A stretch of DNA of 63,317 nucleotides, filler included, from Rhabdomonas costata (taxonomy: Eukaryota), in the NCBI GenBank assembly GCA_019059605.1. It is 29 parts of 29 records of this genome, joined end to end, with 100 filler letters (N's around TTAATTAATTAA, not from the genome) between each part and the next. Parts side by side here need not be neighbours in the genome. Positions count along the whole stretch, not along the records: positions 28,447 to 30,530 come from JAHMHO010005757.1; 28 more parts are not named here. The stretch is one strand, 5' to 3'. The position numbers and the translations under genes are program-made. The notes below the pieces were generated by a model that saw only the letters and a program-made list of their open reading frames with translations, ran no database searches and had not been told where the DNA came from. Every line of letters starts with the position of its first letter. The stretch's first letter is position 1. This document shows positions 26,060 to 44,000 of the stretch, piece after piece.

Positions 26060-28871
26060 CCGGCGTGTCAGGGGCGCACAATCGTGGGGTTGGCGCGGTG
26101 GCCTTCGCGGGGCCGGGCCGGGTGGTCTCCGGGGGCGCGGAGACCACCCGGCCCACCCCNNNNNNNNNNNNNNNNNNNNNNNNNNNNNNNNNNNNNNNNN
26201 NNNTTAATTAATTAANNNNNNNNNNNNNNNNNNNNNNNNNNNNNNNNNNNNNNNNNNNNGTGTGAGTGCAGGGGGGGTGACACGAGGGAAGAATCTAGCG
26301 GCATTTAGGGCCGAGGAATCGCGGAGCAGGTCAGAGATTTTTTTTGCCACACTTCTGTATGTCAAGGGTGCACCACATCTTGTGCCTAGAAACTTAGTGG
26401 TAATCAACCCTAAAACGCTGCCGGCCTGGGGTCTTTTGCAAATGCAGCAGGCCTCCCGACAGTTTTTGGATTTCGCCCTCGGCCGGTCGGGGATCCCCCC
26501 TTTGGGACTCTTTTGTATCGCTTCGCGCCGCTTTTTGTCCACGCAGCGGAAGGTTTACGACAGCACTCACAGGGTATTTACCAAAAACCACCCACGCCGA
26601 CCGGGAACAGGAAAAACACAAAACAGACAACTGGCTCTTGGCCGCCTGCAGTTCACTGTATCATTGTTACCCCATTTCACGGTGGTCCACTGGGAATCAG
26701 ATTTTCCAAAAAAAAACTTTCACAACGGGTTGGGTCCTTAGCTCGAAGTGAGTTGGCGCTTAAGCAGCCCTCTTGCCCCCTGAGGTTTACTGAAAGCCAA
26801 CAGCGATGGTGCCTGGTCTTTCGAGTGACGGAACTCAGAGGGGAGAATCGCCTCACATCGGCGATCGCCCACAAGAGCGAGGGTGTTGGTCAGCCGAGCA
26901 CACCGCCGCAGTCCGGCCGCGCTAGGACGCATGGCATCGCCGCCTGCCCCAGCCATGATGGCCTCATCACTGACAACGACGTCGTCCTTGCCCGCGGGGC
27001 TGCGAAGCCCATCCTTGCACATCAGCCTGGAGATCTGGGGTGCAAGGAAGGAAAGAGCTGCGCGTTTCCAGCTCATCCAGCCATCTAACTTAGCAATACA
27101 CCACCAAAAACTCGGAGGGAATTCTTTCAGTAAATTTAATTTAAAGCGATGAACCTGTGCTGGGACAGGGGCACCTCTGTCGCTAAGGCCCTGCGAGAAA
27201 AACTCTCCTCTCCCATCGGACAGGTGCTCACCATTTCAAGGTCCAATAACTAACAATTCTGATGGAAAATATCCTTCACGTTTCGATTTTGTTGTTTGTT
27301 TTGCACAAGACCAGTGTCAGGACAATAGGACAACAACAAGTTCCAACAATTACAGCACCAAAAGAACAAAGGGTCACTGCGGCACTTGTGCAGAGTATTC
27401 TTCTCTACCCACAGATGATATCGTGGTGTGAGTGTGTGTGTGTGGGTGCTCAGATACACCTGACTCTGCAGAGTTGCGTAGGCGACATTTCCAAGCCGAA
27501 TCCGGGGGTCCGTTCCCGAATCTGGTCCCGAGCTGCGCCCCGCCTGTGGGTGGGTCGGTGGGTCTATACAGCACAGAGGTATTCTAAGAACAACCTTGGG
27601 CACGAAATTCTGGTATGCTGAGCAGCGACGGCTGCAAAGAAAACATACCGCAAATGGTGCGCTTTTAAAACTGGAAGCTGCGCGACATACTAGGTCAGCG
27701 GATGGATAAAGGGAAGGAAGACGGTATGTGTGGCTTTACTCGAAAACTAGCACTTGTAACTAACTAGCATGTCATACCCTCATCACCGTGTCTGGAAACT
27801 ATGGTGTTATAATAGTGGAGTTCAATCACTGCAAACTCAGCCTTTTGCCGCTGGGCGCGGGTGGTCGCTTCACTGAAGGATATTCCTCTTTTTTGCTTGC
27901 GTTTCCGGCCTATGGTTGTAAAAGAGGAGTGAATGCTGGTCACAGTAAGGGCACCTTCTGCAGAGGGGGCTGTCATCCACAGGGTGAAGGGTGGGGGGAC
28001 AGTTTTCATCTAACTGCAGGCTTTTCGGTGGTGAACGTTGTTTTTGATCAATGTACTGTCTGAAAGAACGAAGCCTCTACAAAAACTAAACGAAGTCTCT
28101 AAACGAAGTCTCTACATATGCTTCTCCGTGCGCCGAAAAGGGCTTTGAAAAACTGCTCTGGGCATTGCTTTCTCGCTCGGCATTGTTGAGAGAAAAGGGA
28201 AGCAAAATCGTGCACACGGGTGCCGAGCTCCTCCAAGCGGAATCACATGGGAAGCCATGTAACAGCCAAGAGCGGGCGTATGCGGCACTAGTTACCCGGT
28301 CGCGATTGCGGAAATCAAGCACGTCCATTTCGGAAGCAAACCCACANNNNNNNNNNNNNNNNNNNNNNNNNNNNNNNNNNNNNNNNNNNNTTAATTAATT
28401 AANNNNNNNNNNNNNNNNNNNNNNNNNNNNNNNNNNNNNNNNNNNNTGTTGTGGGGGTGATCGGCCTCCAGGAAGCCGTCAGGAAGGAGGACGATTATTA
28501 AAGCCCGATGGATGCATTTCCGGCTCCTCAATGCCCGATTTCTGTTGCGTGCAGTCTGCAGTCTGCCTGCGTACTTGGAAAAGAGGAGTCGCTTTCGTCT
28601 GCTTGGCCGCCATTATTTTCTGTCTCTAATGCAGAAAGGCCTCGATCTCTCCGACAGTTTCGGGACGTCGGGAGGTCTGAACATTAAACCTCCCAGAATC
28701 CCTGAGCAAACACGTCCCGATGTTCGCACAAATGTGCAATTTTTGTCTCTGATAGAGCAGTGTGGCACTTCTATCGTCTGCACAACCGCTACAAATCCAC
28801 ATGGGACAGTGCCGTCGGGTATCCCCTGAGAAGCCAAGTTCCTTGCTCCTACCGCCCCGCTTTGTCTTCAG

Positions 28872-29545
28872 GGCAACAGTCCACCGCAAGCGACAAATTC
28901 TACCTCATCGACAGTGGGACCTGTTCCGTGTTCAAGAAGGGGGAGAAGCCCACCTTCCTCAACCGAGGAGACACCTGCGGAGATGAGGAGCTTCTGTATG
29001 CCCAAACATACGAGGTCACTGTCCGGACCCAAACCCCTGTGCTGGCGTGGACCCTGGACCGCAAGACCTACACCCGCCTGCTCCACGGCACCTTCATCAA
29101 GAAGCGGGCGCTGTACTCGGAGTTCCTGGCGAAGGTGAGTTTCCTGCAGGGGCTGAGCCACGTGGGGCTGATCCAGCTGGCGGACGCGCTGCAGCCGGAG
29201 ACGTTTGTGCAGGGGCAGTACCTGATCCGGTACGGGGAGGAGGGGCAGTGGTTCTACCTCATCCTGGAGGGCACGGTGGAGGTTCTGGGGCGGGACGGCG
29301 CCAACGCGGTGATCCCGGTGTGCGAGTTCAGCCGGGGGGACTGCGTGGGGGTGATGGAGTTCCTGTACGGCCACCGCACCGTGGCGGACGTCCGCGCGAA
29401 GACCCCAGAGGTGCGCGCGGCGAAGCTCAACCGGGCGCACTTCGAGCTGTGCATGGGCCCGATCAAGGAGCTTCTGAAGAGCAGCCGTCAGGCCGACCCC
29501 GTCTTCGATTACTACCGTGCGCGCCGAAGCTTTGACTCTGGATCG
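28872..29545 (+). CDS. PKA regulatory subunit-like protein, CNB-A/CNB-B exon, kinetoplastid nucleoside-binding type
   Basis: FYLIDSG...GDEELLYAQTYEVTV, then IQLADAL...WFYLILEGTVEV...GVMEFLYGHRTVADV...KLNRAHFELCMGP...FDYY. Neither binding cassette has the canonical PRAA. Confidence 0.92.
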
Positions 29546-30160
29546 GTGCGTTTTACTTTTTCCGTGGGTTTTTTCGTTTTCCGATGCAGGCCAGAAATTT
29601 CCGGTTGCTGATTTTTTTGGTCACTTTGATGCGGTTTGTTTTTGGTCTGCTGAGTTACCGCGGGTTGGCATCCCGAATGTGCTGACATCTCTTTTGATGC
29701 TGCTCGAGAAGATGGCCACCCCGCCATTGCCAGGGTCAGTGCAGCTCCTGCTGCCCGTGCTGACTCAGCTTCTTCCTCCACTTCCTTTCTTTTTTGCATC
29801 AAAAATTGACGAAAACATCCATTTTTCGTATCTTTGCTCCGTTAATGTTTTGTGCACCACCTCCACCAATGTGTGGCTGATCAAGGGCCGCCTTCAGGTT
29901 CGGGCAAAGAGGAAAGACGAGAGGGGCACCCGCAAGGCAAGGTTCACCCGGACCCAGCAAAGGAAAAGCTGAAAAAGTTTTCATTGGGAACGCACTGGAT
30001 CTTGGGTGAGTTGGGTAGAACACCTTTGCTTACGCTCTTGTCAGTTTGGTCAGCAAAAGCCCTCCCTCCCACCTAACGAAGCACCATCCGAAATAGAGCG
30101 TGTGCCCCTTTTAGAAAATTCGCCTGTCTTCTTCCGCAATGCCGTTTTCTTTTACTTCAG

Positions 30161-30530
30161 TCCGAGGCCCAGGGGATGGTCAACTTCTGCTTTGGGGTCC
30201 CCGGCTCCCCCCGCGAGGAAACCGACACCGATACCGACGCAGACGCCGACACCGAAGAGGGCGCTGGCGACGCCTGCGAAGACGAGCCCCAGGAGCTCCG
30301 TGGCCGCCTGGAAGGCGGGCGGCGCGTGACGGTCAGCGCGGAGGTATACAACGCGATGAAGGAGTCCGAGACCTGGGTCGCCCCGGTGTCGGCCAAGGAC
30401 CACACCACGGAGGCCTGGATGCTTCGAATGCTGCAGAATCACGTGCTCTTCCGGCACCTGGATGACCGGGAGCTGCGCAGCATTGTGGGGGCCATGTCCA
30501 AGACGGTGCTGCCGGTGGGCACCCACCCCC
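30161..30530 (+). CDS. Second PKA-R module: acidic linker, inhibitor site and start of CNB-A (truncated by contig end)
   Basis: GGRRVTVSAEVY...PVSAKD....LQNHVLFRHLDDRELRSIVGAM is the typical R-subunit N-terminal half. Confidence 0.9.
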
Positions 30531-32059: not shown

Positions 32060-32376
32060 GTGCGCGTATACGCATAACCAAAACCAAAGAAAGACCCCCC
32101 GAGGCTGCCCCTGTGCCCAAAACGTCAGAGACACACGCAGAAGGGCGCGAAGGGCGGCAAAGAAAGGCAAGGATGAGGAAGAGGGCTTCCCAAGACGGAT
32201 CACTAGATGATCCCATGGGGTCACCCTCCTCGCTGCAGTCCCAAAATTCCTTTCCCTGGTCGCCCTCCATTTCTCGGATCAACCCAAACGTCCGACGACG
32301 CTTGTGTGTGTGTTTTTTGTGTGTGTGGGTCTGGGATGGGAGGAGTGGGTGTGCGAGGACGTGCGTGCACAGGCGC

Positions 32377-32516
32377 TCACTTCACTGTGGTGACGACATC
32401 GTGCATGGCGCTGGCCAGCTGCGGCACAGTGGCCGTGGTCAGGCCGGCCACGGAGATGCGGCCGTTGGTGAGCAGGTAGATGTGGTGCTTCGAGATCAGT
32501 GCCTCACACTGCGCCG
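32377..32516 (-). CDS. Aspartate aminotransferase, last exon (not in the ORF track)
   Basis: AQCEALISKHHIYLLTNGRISVAGLTTATVPQLASAMHDVVTTVK* carries the HIYL..NGRIS.AGL signature. Confidence 0.92.
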
Positions 32517-33493
32517 CTGCACCGCACCCCCAAAACCCCATCCCATTGGCGGGGAAAATGCAAGCCCTTCACATTTCAAGGAAGTCGGCGAGTGCAGCCG
32601 TGCGCTGTGCTCGGTCACCTCGAGATGTGCACTCCGTGGCACAGAGTGGCCAGTTTTAACCATCGGGATGCAAGTACACACGCTGAGTTGGGCAAACACT
32701 GGTACGGATACTGTCAGNNNNNNNNNNNNNNNNNNNNNNNNNNNNNNNNNNNNNNNNNNNNTTAATTAATTAANNNNNNNNNNNNNNNNNNNNNNNNNNN
32801 NNNNNNNNNNNNNNNNNTTTGTGTTGGGCGTTGGGTCTTGTTCCCCCCGTGCTGAGAGTTTCAACTGGACTGCTCTCCTGTATGGTATCCTTCTTCAAAT
32901 GGCTTGGTGTAAATGATCTGAAGAGCTGAGTTTTTTTTGTTTTTGTGCAGGCATTGCTCTGACGGAGGCGCTGCTGCTGTCGAATGTCGTCACAAAGGCC
33001 AAGGGGTTTCCCCAGAGCGGTGTGTAGGCGGCCTTTGCTTGTCTGCTCACACCCGCCCTGTGTTCCCGTGTAGGAGCTAGCAGAACGGAACTGGTGTGAA
33101 GTGCGGCATTTGCTGGCCTCCTCAAGGACTGGCCTTCCAAATCCTGTGAGTGCGCATCGGTTGAGTGTCACCCTCACCGTTCTGGGTGCAGGCTGTTGGA
33201 AATCAAGGTTTGGGGGAAATCTGCCCTCCTGCACGTTTTAGCCCAGCATCATGACAAAACTGTTCCACTTCAACTTTTTGTTCTTCTCCTGTGTTGTGCT
33301 TTTCATTGTGTTGTTGGGTGTAACATTTCCTGGAAAGGAAGGGAGGAGACAGATGTCGCTTTTACGTAACTGCAATTTAGTTTATAGGCATTGTTCCACC
33401 GCGGAGACAGGCACCCAGATACCATAATGGGATGCACCGCGCTGACGCGCGTCGTGCTCGTTGATGTGATGTGGTGGCGGCGGCGTGACCCAG

Positions 33494-34537
33494 CAAAGGA
33501 TGACCTCCTGGTCGCCAGCATCGCCCTGAAGTACACGCAGAGCAACTCCGTGTGCTACGCCCACCGCGGGCAGGTCATTGGGCTCGGCGCGGGGCAGCAG
33601 TCCCGGATCCACTGCACCCGCCTGGCGGGAGAGAAGGCGGATAGCTGGAGGCTTCGCCACCACCCTCGTGTGCTGCAGCTGAAGTGGAAGCCGGTGTGGG
33701 GAGAGACCCGGAACCCCCCCCCTCCTTTTTGGTTTGTCTTGGTGATGTATTGGATCGTATATTTTCAACGTATCCCCCGTAGCACACCAGTATTACTGAA
33801 ATGTCATGATGATCATCTAAATGATGTATACCTATCAGAGACATACATACTCCTTGGGTTGGGATCCATATACCCAAACATATGCCGTTTGCGGTCCCTC
33901 CATAAAAAAGGATGAATTAGATGTGAATGTAGAATTTTCACCGATGTTCGCCTCCTCTGGAGCAATGATCATCCTGAACCACACCCCAGCTTCCCCCCAT
34001 AACACAATTCGTGCTGACTCCCAGGGTATTATATAATATATTATAATATTATATAATAATTAATTATAATAATACATATAGCAGAGACTTCGTCGCTTTG
34101 AAGCAAAAGGAATCTTCGAAAATGGTGGCGTTGCCAGCTGTGTGGTCATGTGACGATTGCCAACAGCTGTGGGTGTTGCTGATTTACATATAACCACTAA
34201 ACGCATATTTCCGGGTTAAAGTGACTATAAAGTTCCCCCACGCACCCTACCACGACCACAGGCAAGACCTTTGTGGTTTGGTAATCAATGGATCCGTTAC
34301 CGTATTCTGTGAGGCCTTTATGTAACCTCTCAGAATGCTGAAGTTAGGACCCCCCCTTGTTCCTCTTAGCGAGTGGTGGTGACCCCTACCCCCCTGTTAC
34401 TTTAGGGTGTGAAGCGCCCCAACAAGTCCAATGCGATTGACCTGCTGGTGTCTGGGGAGATCGCCAACGCCACTCCTGAGGAGAAGGCCGAGTGGGAGGC
34501 CTGCTTTGAGACTGCCCCCGCCCTGTTCACCCGGGAG
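33494..34537 (+). CDS. purH: AICAR transformylase (PurH/ATIC family); exons 33494-33693 and 34406-34537
   Basis: [44 protein letters not shown], then [12 protein letters not shown]. Confidence 0.95.
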
Positions 34538-39865: not shown

Positions 39866-41095
39866 TCAGCCGCTTTCGCTCAGCACTGCTGTCATCGACG
39901 AGGTCGGTTGTGCGACTTCAAAAACAGTCCAGCTCGAGACAGAGGCGTTATGCGGCATGCTCGCCACCCGGGCCGTGGAGCGGTGCGTGATACGTGATAG
40001 AACACTTTGTTGCTCCATCTCGCTGTGAACCGCATAGGGGCTCTCCTCCACACCTCGCCTGGACTTCGAATGAGGGGTCACTGACTGACACTGCATCTGC
40101 TGCTGCTTGCTGCAGTGCGCGCAGTTCAGGGGCCGGCTGCAGGAGTCACAGACCTGCCCAAAGTTCAGCTTAAGTCGGGGAACCGGGCTGGGCAAGGAGA
40201 TCGCGATGATCTCCGGGAACGTCCGTGCGGCCAGCGCAGGGGAGCTCACTTGGACCACTTCCTTGGGGTGCACGATCCCCTTCAGCGGGAACAGCCCCAG
40301 GTGGGTGAACACGCACCCCGAGCGCTGCGCTGTGCTGAGCATGGCGTGGGTCTCCGAGGAGATCAGAACCTGCCCTCCAGCGCCCAGGGCCTCGATGCGA
40401 GCCGCGCAGTTAACCTTCCGAGGGAGGGGAAAAGGAACTCAACGCCACTGCACCGCAGGACTGTAGAGTGAAAGCAACATTGACCTGCAGGGTTCTGGAT
40501 ATGTATGTCCACCTGGTCCCTTTCTTGAGGTCCATTATCCAAGAGAAAACGTTGTTCGGGTGGAAGGCGTGCCTTGCGGGGTATGTGCTCTCTCCGTGGT
40601 AGCCCAAATTTCACCCACAAACGCGCAAAGTGAGAGCCGTGTAGCCATTACCATCCTATTTGATACCACCGTTGGGAATTTCGCTCCTTTCCGCTTCAAC
40701 CACCGTTCAGAAGTTTTGGGCCTTGCAAGCCCCTCTTAATACCAAAAATTGGAGGAAAACACGAGAAAAAGCAGAGGGTCCAAACTACTGCCGCATACTG
40801 CGGGACCAAAATAGTCCACTCCGTTGGTGCGAGGGTTGTACTCCAGCTCCGGCGAGCCCGTGTGGATCCCCATCCGAACCCGAAGCCCACGGAACAGGTA
40901 CTTCGCGGAGGCTTTCTTGGCATCCTCCACATGCACTGGCTGCAGAACCTCAGCACAGCTGGTGCTGGCAAGAATATCCTCGGGCCAGTTCAGCCCCAGA
41001 AGGGCTTCCTGGACGTCCAGAGCCCACTGCAGGGCGGCCGGGGCATTGGAGAAAGCCACCATGAAGCTGTCTCCCTGCGTCTTCACTTCGTAGCC
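39866..41095 (-). CDS. Class III adenylyl cyclase, euglenozoan type; exons 41095-40799 and 40414 onward
   Basis: GYEVKTQGDSFMVAF, LFRGLRVRMGIHTG, DYFGPA|VNCAARIEALGAGGQVLIS and LGLFPLKGI. The 3' end is uncertain. Confidence 0.93.
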
Positions 41096-44000
41096 CTGCA
41101 AAGGGTGGAGATCGCCACTGTAGAAACCACGCGAGTGACTTAACAACCCACAAGAACTTGGAAGAAAATGATGCACAATCAGCATCCGCCCGCACTACTG
41201 ATTTCTTCTTATTTCCACTGCCCACGGTGGCTTTGAAGGCATGCCGCACCACTCCATCCCAACGGACCCCTGGTTGTACTGATCAACCTACTTTGCGTAG
41301 CGGTGCTGTTCAAGCGAGTTAGCGTTCGCTACTTAACTACCCACATACAAATGCTTTTCATCACCTTTTCCTTCTACCCTCTCACGAAACCTTTTGTAGG
41401 CGAAACATCCCTCAAATGAGAGCAACTTGGCACAAGTGCATGAAAAAATGTTCCCAGCACCCAGNNNNNNNNNNNNNNNNNNNNNNNNNNNNNNNNNNNN
41501 NNNNNNNNTTAATTAATTAANNNNNNNNNNNNNNNNNNNNNNNNNNNNNNNNNNNNNNNNNNNNGGTTTTTTGGCTGCGGCTTTCATGTCTTGCCCCTGG
41601 AGTGTCAGGGGTCGCTTTCCTGCGGTCGGCCTCTCCTGCTCTGCGTCACTGTTCTCCCTGGATGCTCCATACTTGATCTCCGCCGCCATCTTTCCCCGAC
41701 CCTTCTCTGCTCCTGGCCCTCTCTCACTCACTCTCACGTCCCCTGCCTCTCTCGCTCGCTCCCGTTGCTGTTGCACTCTCTCTGGCGGTGCTTCCTTCGA
41801 ATGACGACTTTGGTTTTGGCGGGTGCTGTCCCCGTTTTCGGCTTTTGGCCTATCCTTATTCTCCCGCGGAGGACCTGGGGTTGGAATTGGTTGCCTCTCC
41901 TTTCTGGTCATCGCTGACCTTTGTGGAGGGCCTCTGGGGTAAACACCCCTCCCACCTTCCTCGCTGCTGCCACATCCCTCAGCCCCGAGAGGCGGTGGGG
42001 CTGATTATCAAGTGTACAGTGCAGTCGCGGTTTTTTTGTCTTTGTTGGGGCGGGCCGTGTTGCCGCGGCTGCGCCGCCTTGACGCCACCTTGGCTCGCTC
42101 GCAGTGATGATGGCATCCGTTTGTGTGTGTGTTTCCTCTGCTAGTAGTGCGTGCCGTGAACTGTTTCTGTTCATCACCAAATCTGATCTCCTTACTTTTC
42201 CTATCCTTTGCTGACTGCTGTGCAGAACCAGCGGTGGTTTCTTCTGCAGGTTGCTTTTTAGCAAACTGCCTGTTGTAGGTGTTTGTATATTAGCATCCAG
42301 TTCACTGTAGCGATATCACTCTCTGTGCGTGTGTTCTTTTGTCAGTGGCCACCGACAGCGATAAGTCGACTGGTCAAGCGCAGAGGTTGGAGCTCCCTAA
42401 ACCCAAGAAGCCCCAGGCAGCGGAAGAGAGTTTGAAAGCCCGCTGGAGACGGAAATAACCTCCACCGAAAATTGCCTTGTGCACATAATGTGTATGTGTC
42501 CTATCCGTCCACACAAATCAGTGTCTGCGCGTGGCCAAACAATCTCCGTCCAGCATTAAGGGGCTATCCAAATCCCACATCCCATCTGTATTAAGGCATC
42601 CAGGATGCAGGATGAGGGAAAACGAGAGAAAACGAGAGGCAAAAAGACGGCCACGGCCAACAAGCATACTTCGTGCATCGGTTGTGTTTGTGTTTGAGTT
42701 CTTCTGTGAAGAGCCTTCGATATTCTGCGGAAGCACCTCAGCCCGGGGCAAAGGGAATACCAGATAAGCCTTTACAAACAACAAAAACATCAGCCTCAAA
42801 GGACATGGAAACCTGTCAATGTTTGAGAGAAGCGATATGAGGCAATATATAAGCACCCTGTGACACCACGAACTCGGTAAAGTGCGGACTTAGCTATTTT
42901 TCCTTTCCGGGGTGTGATCGTTTTTCCATTATGCTTGTTGTCGTGTTATCATTTGCTCTCGCAGGTGTTCAAGGTTCCGACCAAGTTTTTCAAGCACACC
43001 GGTGATGTCTTATCGGTGCGCTTCTTTTTCTGTAAAATACCACCTGCCTCATCCTGCTGTCCCGGGTCGGAAGGCCTAACCATTCATTCCCCCACACTAC
43101 TATCCACCTCATCTCGACCAAGATGTGAAAGGGTAAGACTCAGCCCCAGCTGAAACCAATGTATGCGCGGCAATGAGCCTGTGGACTCCTGTGGAGTTCA
43201 AGGGAAGCTTGCGTAAAAGTCTCATGATGACCCTGACATGATGCGGAATTCATCTCAACGTTCAACGTGACTATGGCTGGGCTCTTTGTATTGTTACTTT
43301 CGACAGTATCCATAGGTGAGCGAGAAAGTTAATCTAACGAACGCATTACTGCCAACTTCCGATTAGGTGCTTTTAAATCGTGCAAACTTGCAGTCATTCT
43401 CAAAAATATGCAAGATGGCGCAACTCTCTTAGCTCCCACTCCCACTCTTTTTTTTTGCGATTCGGTGAACGCTGGAAAGCGTGGAAGAGAGGTGTGGGAG
43501 TTGTCTAGTGTTTTCTGCAACAGCAAGAACTCCTTTATTATTTTTGGACATGGTTGTAGGTCTGGTTTGATGACCAGCCGGACTTCACGGAGGTCACGAT
43601 GATGGTGAAAGTGGCCAGCCGGCTGAAGTCCGGCTGGTCATCACACCAACCNNNNNNNNNNNNNNNNNNNNNNNNNNNNNNNNNNNNNNNNNNNNTTAAT
43701 TAATTAANNNNNNNNNNNNNNNNNNNNNNNNNNNNNNNNNNNNNNNNNNNNGTGTGGGTGTGTTTGGGTTGTGTTGGGAACCGTTACCAGTTTTATTAGG
43801 CTCCATCGTAAACTGAAACTTTTGTCGCAGCATTTAGAGCACACGTTCTAGGGATGAACGGTTCAAAATCAGGGCAGGCAGTGCGACGCCTGATGTTTTG
43901 GGGCTGAAGGTGCACGGCGGGGGAAATTTTGACTCAAGGAGTACAAGAAAATACACATACACTGAAAAAACACACTGAAAAAACTTCAGTCAACATTGAT

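Follow-up and report, generated by a model that had tools for sequence, protein, structure and literature searches.

An exon for a CNB (cyclic nucleotide-binding) domain pair on contig JAHMHO010005757.1 (C5757) of the euglenid Rhabdomonas costata (assembly GCA_019059605.1) is followed, after a gap of 615 nt, by an exon that opens with an acidic linker, an inhibitor site, and the beginning of a further CNB domain. In the textbook stoichiometry of protein kinase A (PKA), a regulatory (R) chain has one inhibitor site and two CNB domains, and the arrangement on C5757 raises the question of whether the two exons, here called exon A and exon B, belong to two neighboring genes or to a single chain. 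In our view, C5757 likely spans the point at which two modules meet within a single gene for a multi-module, nucleoside-type PKA regulatory subunit (PKAR).

All positions refer to the window, the whole 63,317-nt stretch that was analyzed, in which 29 separate contigs of ~2 kb are connected by N-TTAATTAATTAA-N linkers. Both exons lie on C5757 (window 28447–30530), and their context is limited to this one contig of 2084 nt. The assembly (G000) comprises 97 Mb in 104,289 contigs.

Two regulatory modules on one contig

The first-pass annotation had described a CNB-A/CNB-B exon that runs past the lid to a phase-0 donor and, downstream of it, a phase-0 acceptor that opens a frame with an acidic linker, the motif RRVTVSAE, and a new CNB-A. 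Both descriptions, with the coordinates of the exons, the donor, the 615-nt gap, the acceptor, the ATG, and a stop at 29611, were borne out when the sequence was read again (Table 1). Exon A is a single exon of 674 nt that begins in phase 1 and remains open up to the phase-0 donor GTGCGT at 29546. An equal phase-1 intron position is found in loci L002, L024 (donor side), and L033, the last from a related organism. The R. costata assembly contains many nucleoside-type PKAR gene fragments (33 matches; loci L002–L032), mostly split into small exons, unlike exon A.

Exon B is open from 30161 through the contig end, with an ATG at 30176. The upstream exon with the first helices of the module 1 CNB-A lies off the contig, as does the module 1 inhibitor site, and only the first helices of the module 2 CNB-A lie on it. 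The last few bases of exon B are probably unreliable. C/A-rich or G/T-rich runs occur at contig ends, e.g., L002:1215–1227 and window 30520–30530, and the end of L002 reads C at two positions where its paralogue has G, suggesting low-quality terminal bases.

Table 1 Features of contig C5757, by position in the window.
Feature	Position	Strand	Remarks
3′ part of phase-1 intron inside CNB-A of module 1	28447–28871	+	Contig start 28447; acceptor AG 28870–28871
Exon A: CNB-A β-barrel, B/C helix, CNB-B, αD-like lid, and 10-residue tail of module 1	28872–29545	+	Pfam and PDB matches, codon score
Site-A ribose-binding-cassette equivalent, GDEELLYAQTYEV	28979–29017	+	Glu at T. brucei E311 position; no phosphate-binding Arg; Asp for E309
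Site-B cassette, GVMEFLYGHRTVA	29348–29386	+	Retains the equivalents of E435, H440, and V443; Val (codon 29351–29353) in place of E433
αD lid: Pro hinge, aromatic cap, Tyr-Tyr	29498–29515	+	PVFDYY aligns with T. brucei PNYEYY
Probable phase-0 cis-intron between modules, 615 nt	29546–30160	+	GTGCGT ... pyrimidine tract CAG
Read-through frame to stop, required by a two-gene reading	29546–29611	+	Non-coding by codon score
Weak candidate alternative last exon, 24 codons in phase 0, then TGA	29898–29972	+	After AG 29896–29897
Exon B: leader, inhibitor site, and first CNB-A helices of module 2	30161–30530	+	Cut by contig end
FxFG motif (FCFG)	30185–30196	+	Precedes acidic linker in most family modules
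Acidic linker	30209–30286	+	Sequence; similar linkers in L002, L033, P0002, P0003
Second inhibitor site RRVTVSAE (RRxT, phosphorylatable type as in trypanosomatid PKAR1)	30320–30343	+	Sequence

Pfam assigned two stretches of exon A to cNMP_binding (PF00027, E 4.8e-25), and alignments with PDB structures span its residues 4–217, both identifying a tandem CNB-A and CNB-B. The PDB E-values were 4.9e-61 for Trypanosoma cruzi PKAR (6FTF, the best match), 8.3e-58 for T. brucei (6FLO), 2.9e-38 for mammalian RIα (1RGS), and 6e-24 for the cAMP-dependent Euglena gracilis protein (6RSX). Exon B alone gave no CNB match in the Pfam scan; it aligns with the same exon of a related contig (47% identity over 85 aa, E 8e-26) and with a paralogous exon of the same assembly (43% identity), and it supplies the basic RRxS/T/A/G-type inhibitor site upstream of the module 2 CNB-A (RRVT at 30320). 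A Pfam "Phosphoprotein" match on exon B (E 0.025, below the cut-off) was set aside as a match to acidic composition.

Coding signal in the exons and the gap

Under a codon model for which 1199 codons of other loci in the assembly served as training set, exon A scores +0.75 and exon B +0.5 to +0.8. The GC content of third codon positions is 0.88 in each exon vs 0.41 in the read-through frame, so the exon frames are more than chance, and neither exon contains a stop or frameshift. The read-through, which ends in a TGA at 29609–29611, scores −0.64, a value to which 0 of 287 exon windows of equal length descend. The five codons upstream of ATG 30176 score +0.8, a level attained by 138 of 319 exon windows and 34 of 3928 intron windows.

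The gap sequence is single-copy in the assembly. Its best pyrimidine tract (13/15) sits at its 3′ end, which reads TTTTACTTCAG at 30160, and its length falls within that of eight closed gaps in other PKAR-like loci of the assembly (about 166–661 nt, approximate bounds). Two other splicing patterns were considered and rejected. An internal coding exon 29898–30005 or 29886–30005, using a GGTGAGT donor, is ruled out by the stop of the phase-0 frame after AG 29896–29897 at 29970–29972, and a 44-nt intron ending at AG 29588–29589 is unlikely, its downstream frame scoring −0.28 to −0.52.

A predicted cis-intron between the modules

Positions 29545 and 30161 are probably joined by cis-splicing. The first-pass annotation had proposed a single chain; spacing, coding scores, exon phases, and multi-module relatives now favor a cis-intron, while the junction itself is still a prediction and the annotation's alternative of two paralogues retains a small share of the probability.

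When the exons are joined, the lid Tyr-Tyr is separated from FxFG by 18 codons, vs 19, 20, and 20 in Peranema and Ploeotia proteins and 24, 29, and 74 in three others, and from the inhibitor RR by 63 codons, vs 59, 60, and 63 in Peranema and Ploeotia (overall range 18–119). On another R. costata contig, C73467, a single exon continues beyond the YY lid with the initial half of a linker of the Peranema/Ploeotia type and then reaches a donor. A phase-0 acceptor opens the paralogous exon on contig C22853, in which no Met precedes the inhibitor site, suggesting that this type of exon is internal.

In locus L033, exon B, a phase-1 intron, and exon A are followed by a ~245-nt GT..AG gap and by exon B again. 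The two-exon module is thus repeated head to tail (L033:1–1955) with a period of 1634 nt, its ends being identical at 319 of 321 positions, and phase-0 GT donors lie at 1451 and 1457. Upstream there is a single in-frame ATG, whose frame stays open in the first copy but meets a TAG in the second. Four related open reading frames (ORFs) continue after the lid with Val and then Phe/Leu/Tyr-rich sequence, as a phase-0 GT donor would give, the DNA having been seen for L033 only. Within the protein cluster of L033 (P0059, 10 members), most of the variation falls in the tail that follows the lid, which suggests several near-identical copies.

If C5757 instead held two closely spaced single-module paralogues, gene 1 would end at 29611 or within 29898–29972, and gene 2, starting at ATG 30176, would be trans-spliced at 30160 or have a non-coding first exon to 30005. 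Single-module relatives do start shortly before FxFG and make up the sister group, L033 could represent genes arrayed in tandem, and passages of PMC6366073 report trans-splicing and a sparse genome for E. gracilis. However, the read-through that this alternative needs scores under every one of the exon windows, the codons ahead of ATG 30176 score as coding, the L002 exon has no usable Met, and the four related ORFs change composition at the Val after the lid in the manner of a phase-0 donor. Less than 600 nt would have to hold a 3′ untranslated region (UTR), intergenic DNA, and an outron in a genome with introns of that length, and the same passages (PMC6366073) call extensive polycistronic transcription unlikely in E. 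gracilis. The donor-like GGTGAGT at 30005, which a non-coding first exon could use, is not enriched over chance (8 copies of the 7-mer in the window vs 7.5 expected). We regard two paralogues as quite improbable.

Several results weigh against the single chain. No protein spanning the 29545|30161 junction was found in three homolog searches and a search of representatives, and searches of the R. costata assembly did not find the A-type exon expected after exon B. The sister group's seven proteins that are complete or nearly so (E. gracilis, E. longa, and others) all have a single module. FxFG stands at residues 7–17 in the six of these that were checked and would stand at residue 4 of a protein starting at ATG 30176, which could be a start since single-module relatives begin just before this motif. 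The nearest transcript-derived sequences, P0007 and P0062 (both appear 5′-truncated), carry non-PKAR tails and no further module. The 10-codon tail ahead of the donor scores −0.27, and the five-codon test loses weight if a 5′ UTR is GC-rich, as it could be. The L033 sequence may stem from the collapse of an array of separate genes, the upstream ATG of its first copy being open. Finally, the frame from 29886/29898 is the sole positive scorer among 20 AG-started open windows in the gap.

This frame bears on a further possibility, that of one locus with alternative processing, in which the long form joins 29545 to 30161 and other transcripts end within 29898–29972 or receive a trans-spliced start at 30161, giving shorter regulators. 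ATG 30176 is in frame, and possible differential exon inclusion is described for E. gracilis in passages of PMC6366073. The frame nevertheless scores only +0.02, or +0.29 from AG 29884–29885, both under the lowest true exon window (0.31, n = 36); a score of 0.02 is attained by 2 of 92 intron windows, and windows at 0.03–0.05 occur in 2 of 10 control introns. No homolog of the 29898–29972 peptide was found among the tails inspected. Alternative processing is, in our judgment, very improbable.

It is highly unlikely that C5757 is a pseudogene or a mis-assembly in which a collapsed repeat fused one copy's exon A to the intron and exon B belonging to a second copy. The assembly is highly fragmented, the A-type exon of module 2 is missing, and C22853 breaks off within a stretch that matches exon A without a difference; blastn among 11 loci detected no end overlap linking C5757 to C22853 or C70275. 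Any such join would still require an A-then-B neighborhood in at least one copy, L033 has the same order independently, and the single-copy gap and the intact exons also speak for a genuine locus.

Relatives with repeated modules

Modules were counted with a fixed score threshold in 99 proteins out of roughly 200 homologs, P0051 and P0034 being undercounted, and at least two modules were present in 22 of the 99. The first-pass annotation had proposed looking for repeated inhibitor plus CNB-CNB units in euglenid and diplonemid transcriptomes. Such units occur in eight named EukProt proteins from seven taxa, with 2–5 modules each: Entosiphon sulcatum P0001 (five modules, 10 CNB stretches), Ploeotia vitrea P0002 (three modules, six stretches), Peranema trichophorum P0003 (two modules, four stretches) and P0029 (three modules), Diplonema japonicum P0031 and Lacrimia lanifica P0033 (two modules each), Sulcionema specki P0055 (three modules), and P0054 (three modules), whose prefix "Hpha" presumably stands for Hemistasia. 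The last four are diplonemid proteins. In P0005 (eight cluster members), two modules are combined with a leucine-rich repeat (LRR). Because locus L035 encodes three modules in one intron-less genomic ORF of 1121 aa, chimeric transcript assembly is ruled out as the general cause of the multi-module architecture.

A regular-expression scan of 24 proteins yielded 41 rows, one of them a C-terminal tail, leaving 40 inter-module linkers. A basic inhibitor-like motif is present in 38 of these and FxFG in 23, which argues that the whole unit is repeated and not the CNB pairs alone. In most modules of Euglenozoa, whether they stand alone or in series, FxFG lies 30–60 residues upstream of the inhibitor site (P0002, P0003, P0016, P0067, and others). 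No published description of this motif was found, and in the AlphaFold model of P0003 it is of low confidence and has no fixed partner. A domain scan of 14 relatives reported no docking and dimerization (D/D) family.

Canonical cAMP-type cassettes occur together with repeated RRxGVS/RRxAVS motifs in P0058, P0079, P0101, P0065, and P0075, which are possibly multi-module cAMP-type R subunits outside Euglenozoa; the design may hence recur beyond this group. The inhibitor-like motifs number seven in P0058 (3779 aa, 11 cassette matches), three in P0101, and two in P0079, all of which are weaker hits.

Other domains accompany the modules in some relatives. The single-module euglenid R subunits P0067, P0192, and P0193 are fused to a C-terminal PF01918 domain, which we take to be Alba. 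By eye, the three-module protein P0056 terminates with an EF-hand-like region (residues ~1040–1198), and P0062 ends in a cupin-like tail. The three-module proteins P0027, P0051–P0057, P0060, and P0064 start with MGCG, presumably a myristoylation/palmitoylation-like signal that would suggest membrane or flagellar anchoring. On R. costata contig C4111 (L004), a run of glutamines and an RRGS motif come after a divergent CNB-B, beyond ~1480.

Ligand pockets

In trypanosomatid PKAR, Glu311 and Glu435 clash with the cAMP phosphate and bind the nucleoside ribose, and an αD lid with Tyr484-Tyr485 closes site B, as described in passages of Ober et al. 2024 (PMC10959531). Exon A has the ribose-binding Glu at both the E311 and the E435 positions. 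Its sites do not have the canonical cAMP cassette (GELAL..PRAA type); in both, Glu replaces the Ala and Tyr/Thr the Arg. The first cassette Glu is not kept and is replaced by Asp for E309 in site A and by Val for E433 in site B. Val occurs at the E433 position in 0 of 130 other Euglenozoa-type rows, and another non-Glu residue in 7 of them. It is one base from Glu, the two closest rows have Glu, and it could be an assembly error. Further departures are Val for the site-A capping Tyr370, Cys for H430, and Tyr for N438.

By these residues, the exon A pockets are of the trypanosomatid nucleoside type and not of the cAMP type, and they are partly degenerate. With the Glu pair and the lid kept, the Arg absent, and E309, E433, Y370, H430, and N438 altered, exon A is unlikely to sense cAMP and may plausibly sense nucleosides, possibly with a weakened pocket. 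The loss of the first Glu lowers the case for a functional nucleoside pocket, not that for descent from the Euglenozoa nucleoside-type PKAR group.

The same five substitutions would also suit a multi-module chain whose chief role is to hold or sequester kinases, as a scaffold or sink insensitive to ligands, the pockets of this module being decayed and kinase release not controlled by nucleosides. There is a parallel in Leishmania PKAR3, which binds nucleoside analogues yet is not dissociated from PKAC3 by them, according to passages of PMC11006142. This is unlikely for C5757, as none of E311, E435, H440, V443, the Pro hinge, and Tyr-Tyr has been lost, and the Val at E433 could disappear with a single corrected base.

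The paralogous module on C22853 has both Glu and Arg in site A, and modules of the R. costata genome thus differ in pocket type. P0122 is a hybrid of another kind, with a canonical cAMP-type cassette (Ala, Pro-Arg) in site A and a nucleoside-type Glu cassette in site B.

Phylogenetic distribution of the modules

Two trees were built, a quick one of 121 rows, from which 16 of 137 were left out (near-duplicates and one poorly aligned row), and a careful one of 57 rows. In the careful tree, exon A groups with P0059 and P0006 (99/82) and then with P0007 and P0062 (99/97), within a 17-row clade (98/91) that also contains module 2 of Ploeotia, Peranema, and P0005 and the seven single-module proteins. 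Exon A stands apart from the LRR-bearing diplonemid and kinetoplastid-like rows, yet P0005, in its own clade, has an LRR. Going by these homologs, the source of C5757 belongs with the euglenids.

Multi-module proteins occupy three places in the quick tree. The first is a 42-row group with 3–5 modules (diplonemids, kinetoplastid-like rows, Entosiphon, and Peranema P0029), in which modules are mostly grouped by position; the second consists of the diplonemid LRR-plus-two proteins and the third of the euglenid group with the C5757 locus. Our reading of the trees is that the architecture had at least three origins. On the sequences compared, it is not peculiar to the C5757 gene and recurs across Euglenozoa. 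The near-identity of the L033 repeat and the 91% DNA identity of two R. costata B exons fit recent duplication.

Three other contigs of the window carry exons recognized by motifs: minus-strand ORFs at 39866–41194, which we take to be class III adenylate/guanylate cyclase-like; a plus-strand exon at 33490–33696 presumably resembling AICAR transformylase; and a minus-strand exon at 32372–32520 presumably resembling aspartate aminotransferase.

A model for the multi-module chain

In the model that we favor, a module would comprise FxFG, an acidic linker, an RRxT/S/A inhibitor site, CNB-A, CNB-B, and the αD lid. Cis-splicing of 29546–30160 would give a chain of at least two modules, that is, four CNB domains and two inhibitor sites, including exons off the contig. 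The modules would fold independently around a flexible linker of ~60 residues. From established PKA biochemistry, each RRxT site would dock one catalytic subunit and each CNB pair would free it upon ligand binding, so that a monomeric chain without a D/D domain would still cluster several kinases. The pockets would exclude cAMP and respond to purine nucleosides, or to nothing where degenerate, and the modules would release kinase at different thresholds or serve partly as a scaffold. In the euglenid clade, the module would be a two-exon cassette flanked by phase-0 introns, an arrangement that would allow in-frame module duplication and varying module number.

In the AlphaFold model of Peranema P0003, two units are predicted with confidence and the linker (residues 243–294) with low confidence (pTM 0.50), with a TM-score of 0.66–0.71 to kinase-bound R structures vs about 0.5 to ligand-bound ones. 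This model fits independent beads on a string, and binding itself is not implied. The putative holding of several kinases and integration of ligands, already suggested in the first-pass annotation, are still predictions.

On a wider and more tentative view, which we put at somewhat less than even, Euglenozoa may repeatedly have built a polyvalent PKA, with two to five inhibitor-plus-sensor units per chain in place of D/D dimerization. Such chains would hold several catalytic subunits, the pocket of each unit being nucleoside-only, a Glu-plus-Arg hybrid, or blind, and their output would be stepwise in several metabolites. The phase-0 two-exon cassette would still be duplicating in the euglenid clade, and similar chains with cAMP-type pockets would exist in other eukaryotes.

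Comparison with known regulators

Trypanosomatid PKAR1 (T. cruzi 6FTF/6HYI/6HYQ, T. brucei 6FLO; passages of PMC10959531) shares with C5757 the Glu at E311/E435, the lack of a phosphate-binding Arg at T318/N442, the αD Pro and Tyr-Tyr, and the RRxT site. It has an N-terminal LRR and one module per chain, against a predicted minimum of two modules for C5757, where the N-terminus lies off the contig, and exon A departs from it at the E433, E309, Y370, and H430 equivalents. Passages of bioRxiv 10.1101/2023.11.08.566240 and PMC11006142 describe trypanosomatid PKARs without a D/D domain, which makes tandem repetition a plausible other route to polyvalency. Among these, Leishmania and T. cruzi PKAR3 resembles the predicted C5757 type in lacking the D/D domain, in being refractory to cAMP, and in its divergent pockets, but it has a single module and forms a separate branch in both trees. 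The PKAR3-like row P0016, whose PKAR3 label is our inference, also has FxFG.

The footnote to S1 Table of PMC11006142 records extra CNB pairs in a kinetoplastid PKAR, a three-pair protein that we guess to be a Bodo saltans entry, and the examined parts of that source make no mention of repeated inhibitor sites, distribution, or function. Proteins of this kind with 3–5 modules belong to a different clade from the C5757 locus in the quick tree. Our literature search, which did not extend to most subscription papers and theses or to bioRxiv supplements, listed no publication that deals with PKA R subunits of several modules, and a fuller prior description is possible. No PKA passage was found in the part of PMC13615690 covered.

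Canonical cAMP-dependent R subunits (RIα 1RGS; E. gracilis 6RSX) have the same inhibitor site and CNB-A/CNB-B fold, but carry Ala and Arg in the phosphate-binding cassette (six canonical rows). Mammalian R subunits hold two kinases through D/D dimerization and not through tandem repetition. In PKG there is a single kinase, fused, and a single autoinhibitory segment, in place of repeated inhibitor sites that act in trans. Apicomplexan PKG (5DYK, 5DZC) resembles a multi-module chain in having four CNB domains, i.e., more than two per chain. These two structures ranked top by E-value in a Foldseek search with the P0003 model (16–17% identity), and the likeness was set aside for its TM-score of 0.27–0.28.

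Repeated inhibitor-sensor units would surprise specialists of PKA and of Euglenozoa, yet their components are familiar, a protein with three pairs already appears in a footnote, and the contig is a fragment only. If the reading is true, chains made of several complete units would offer another means of setting the valency, cooperativity, and clustering of kinases, one that needs neither D/D dimers nor A-kinase anchoring proteins (AKAPs), and Peranema P0003, with its two modules, would be a natural test bed for kinase stoichiometry. The modules of a single chain or genome differ, e.g., by a site-A Glu with or without Arg, at residues shown to switch specificity between nucleosides and cyclic nucleotides in passages of Ober et al. 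(PMC10959531), and they may hence bear on the evolution and sensing of the cAMP-independent PKA of trypanosomes and Leishmania.

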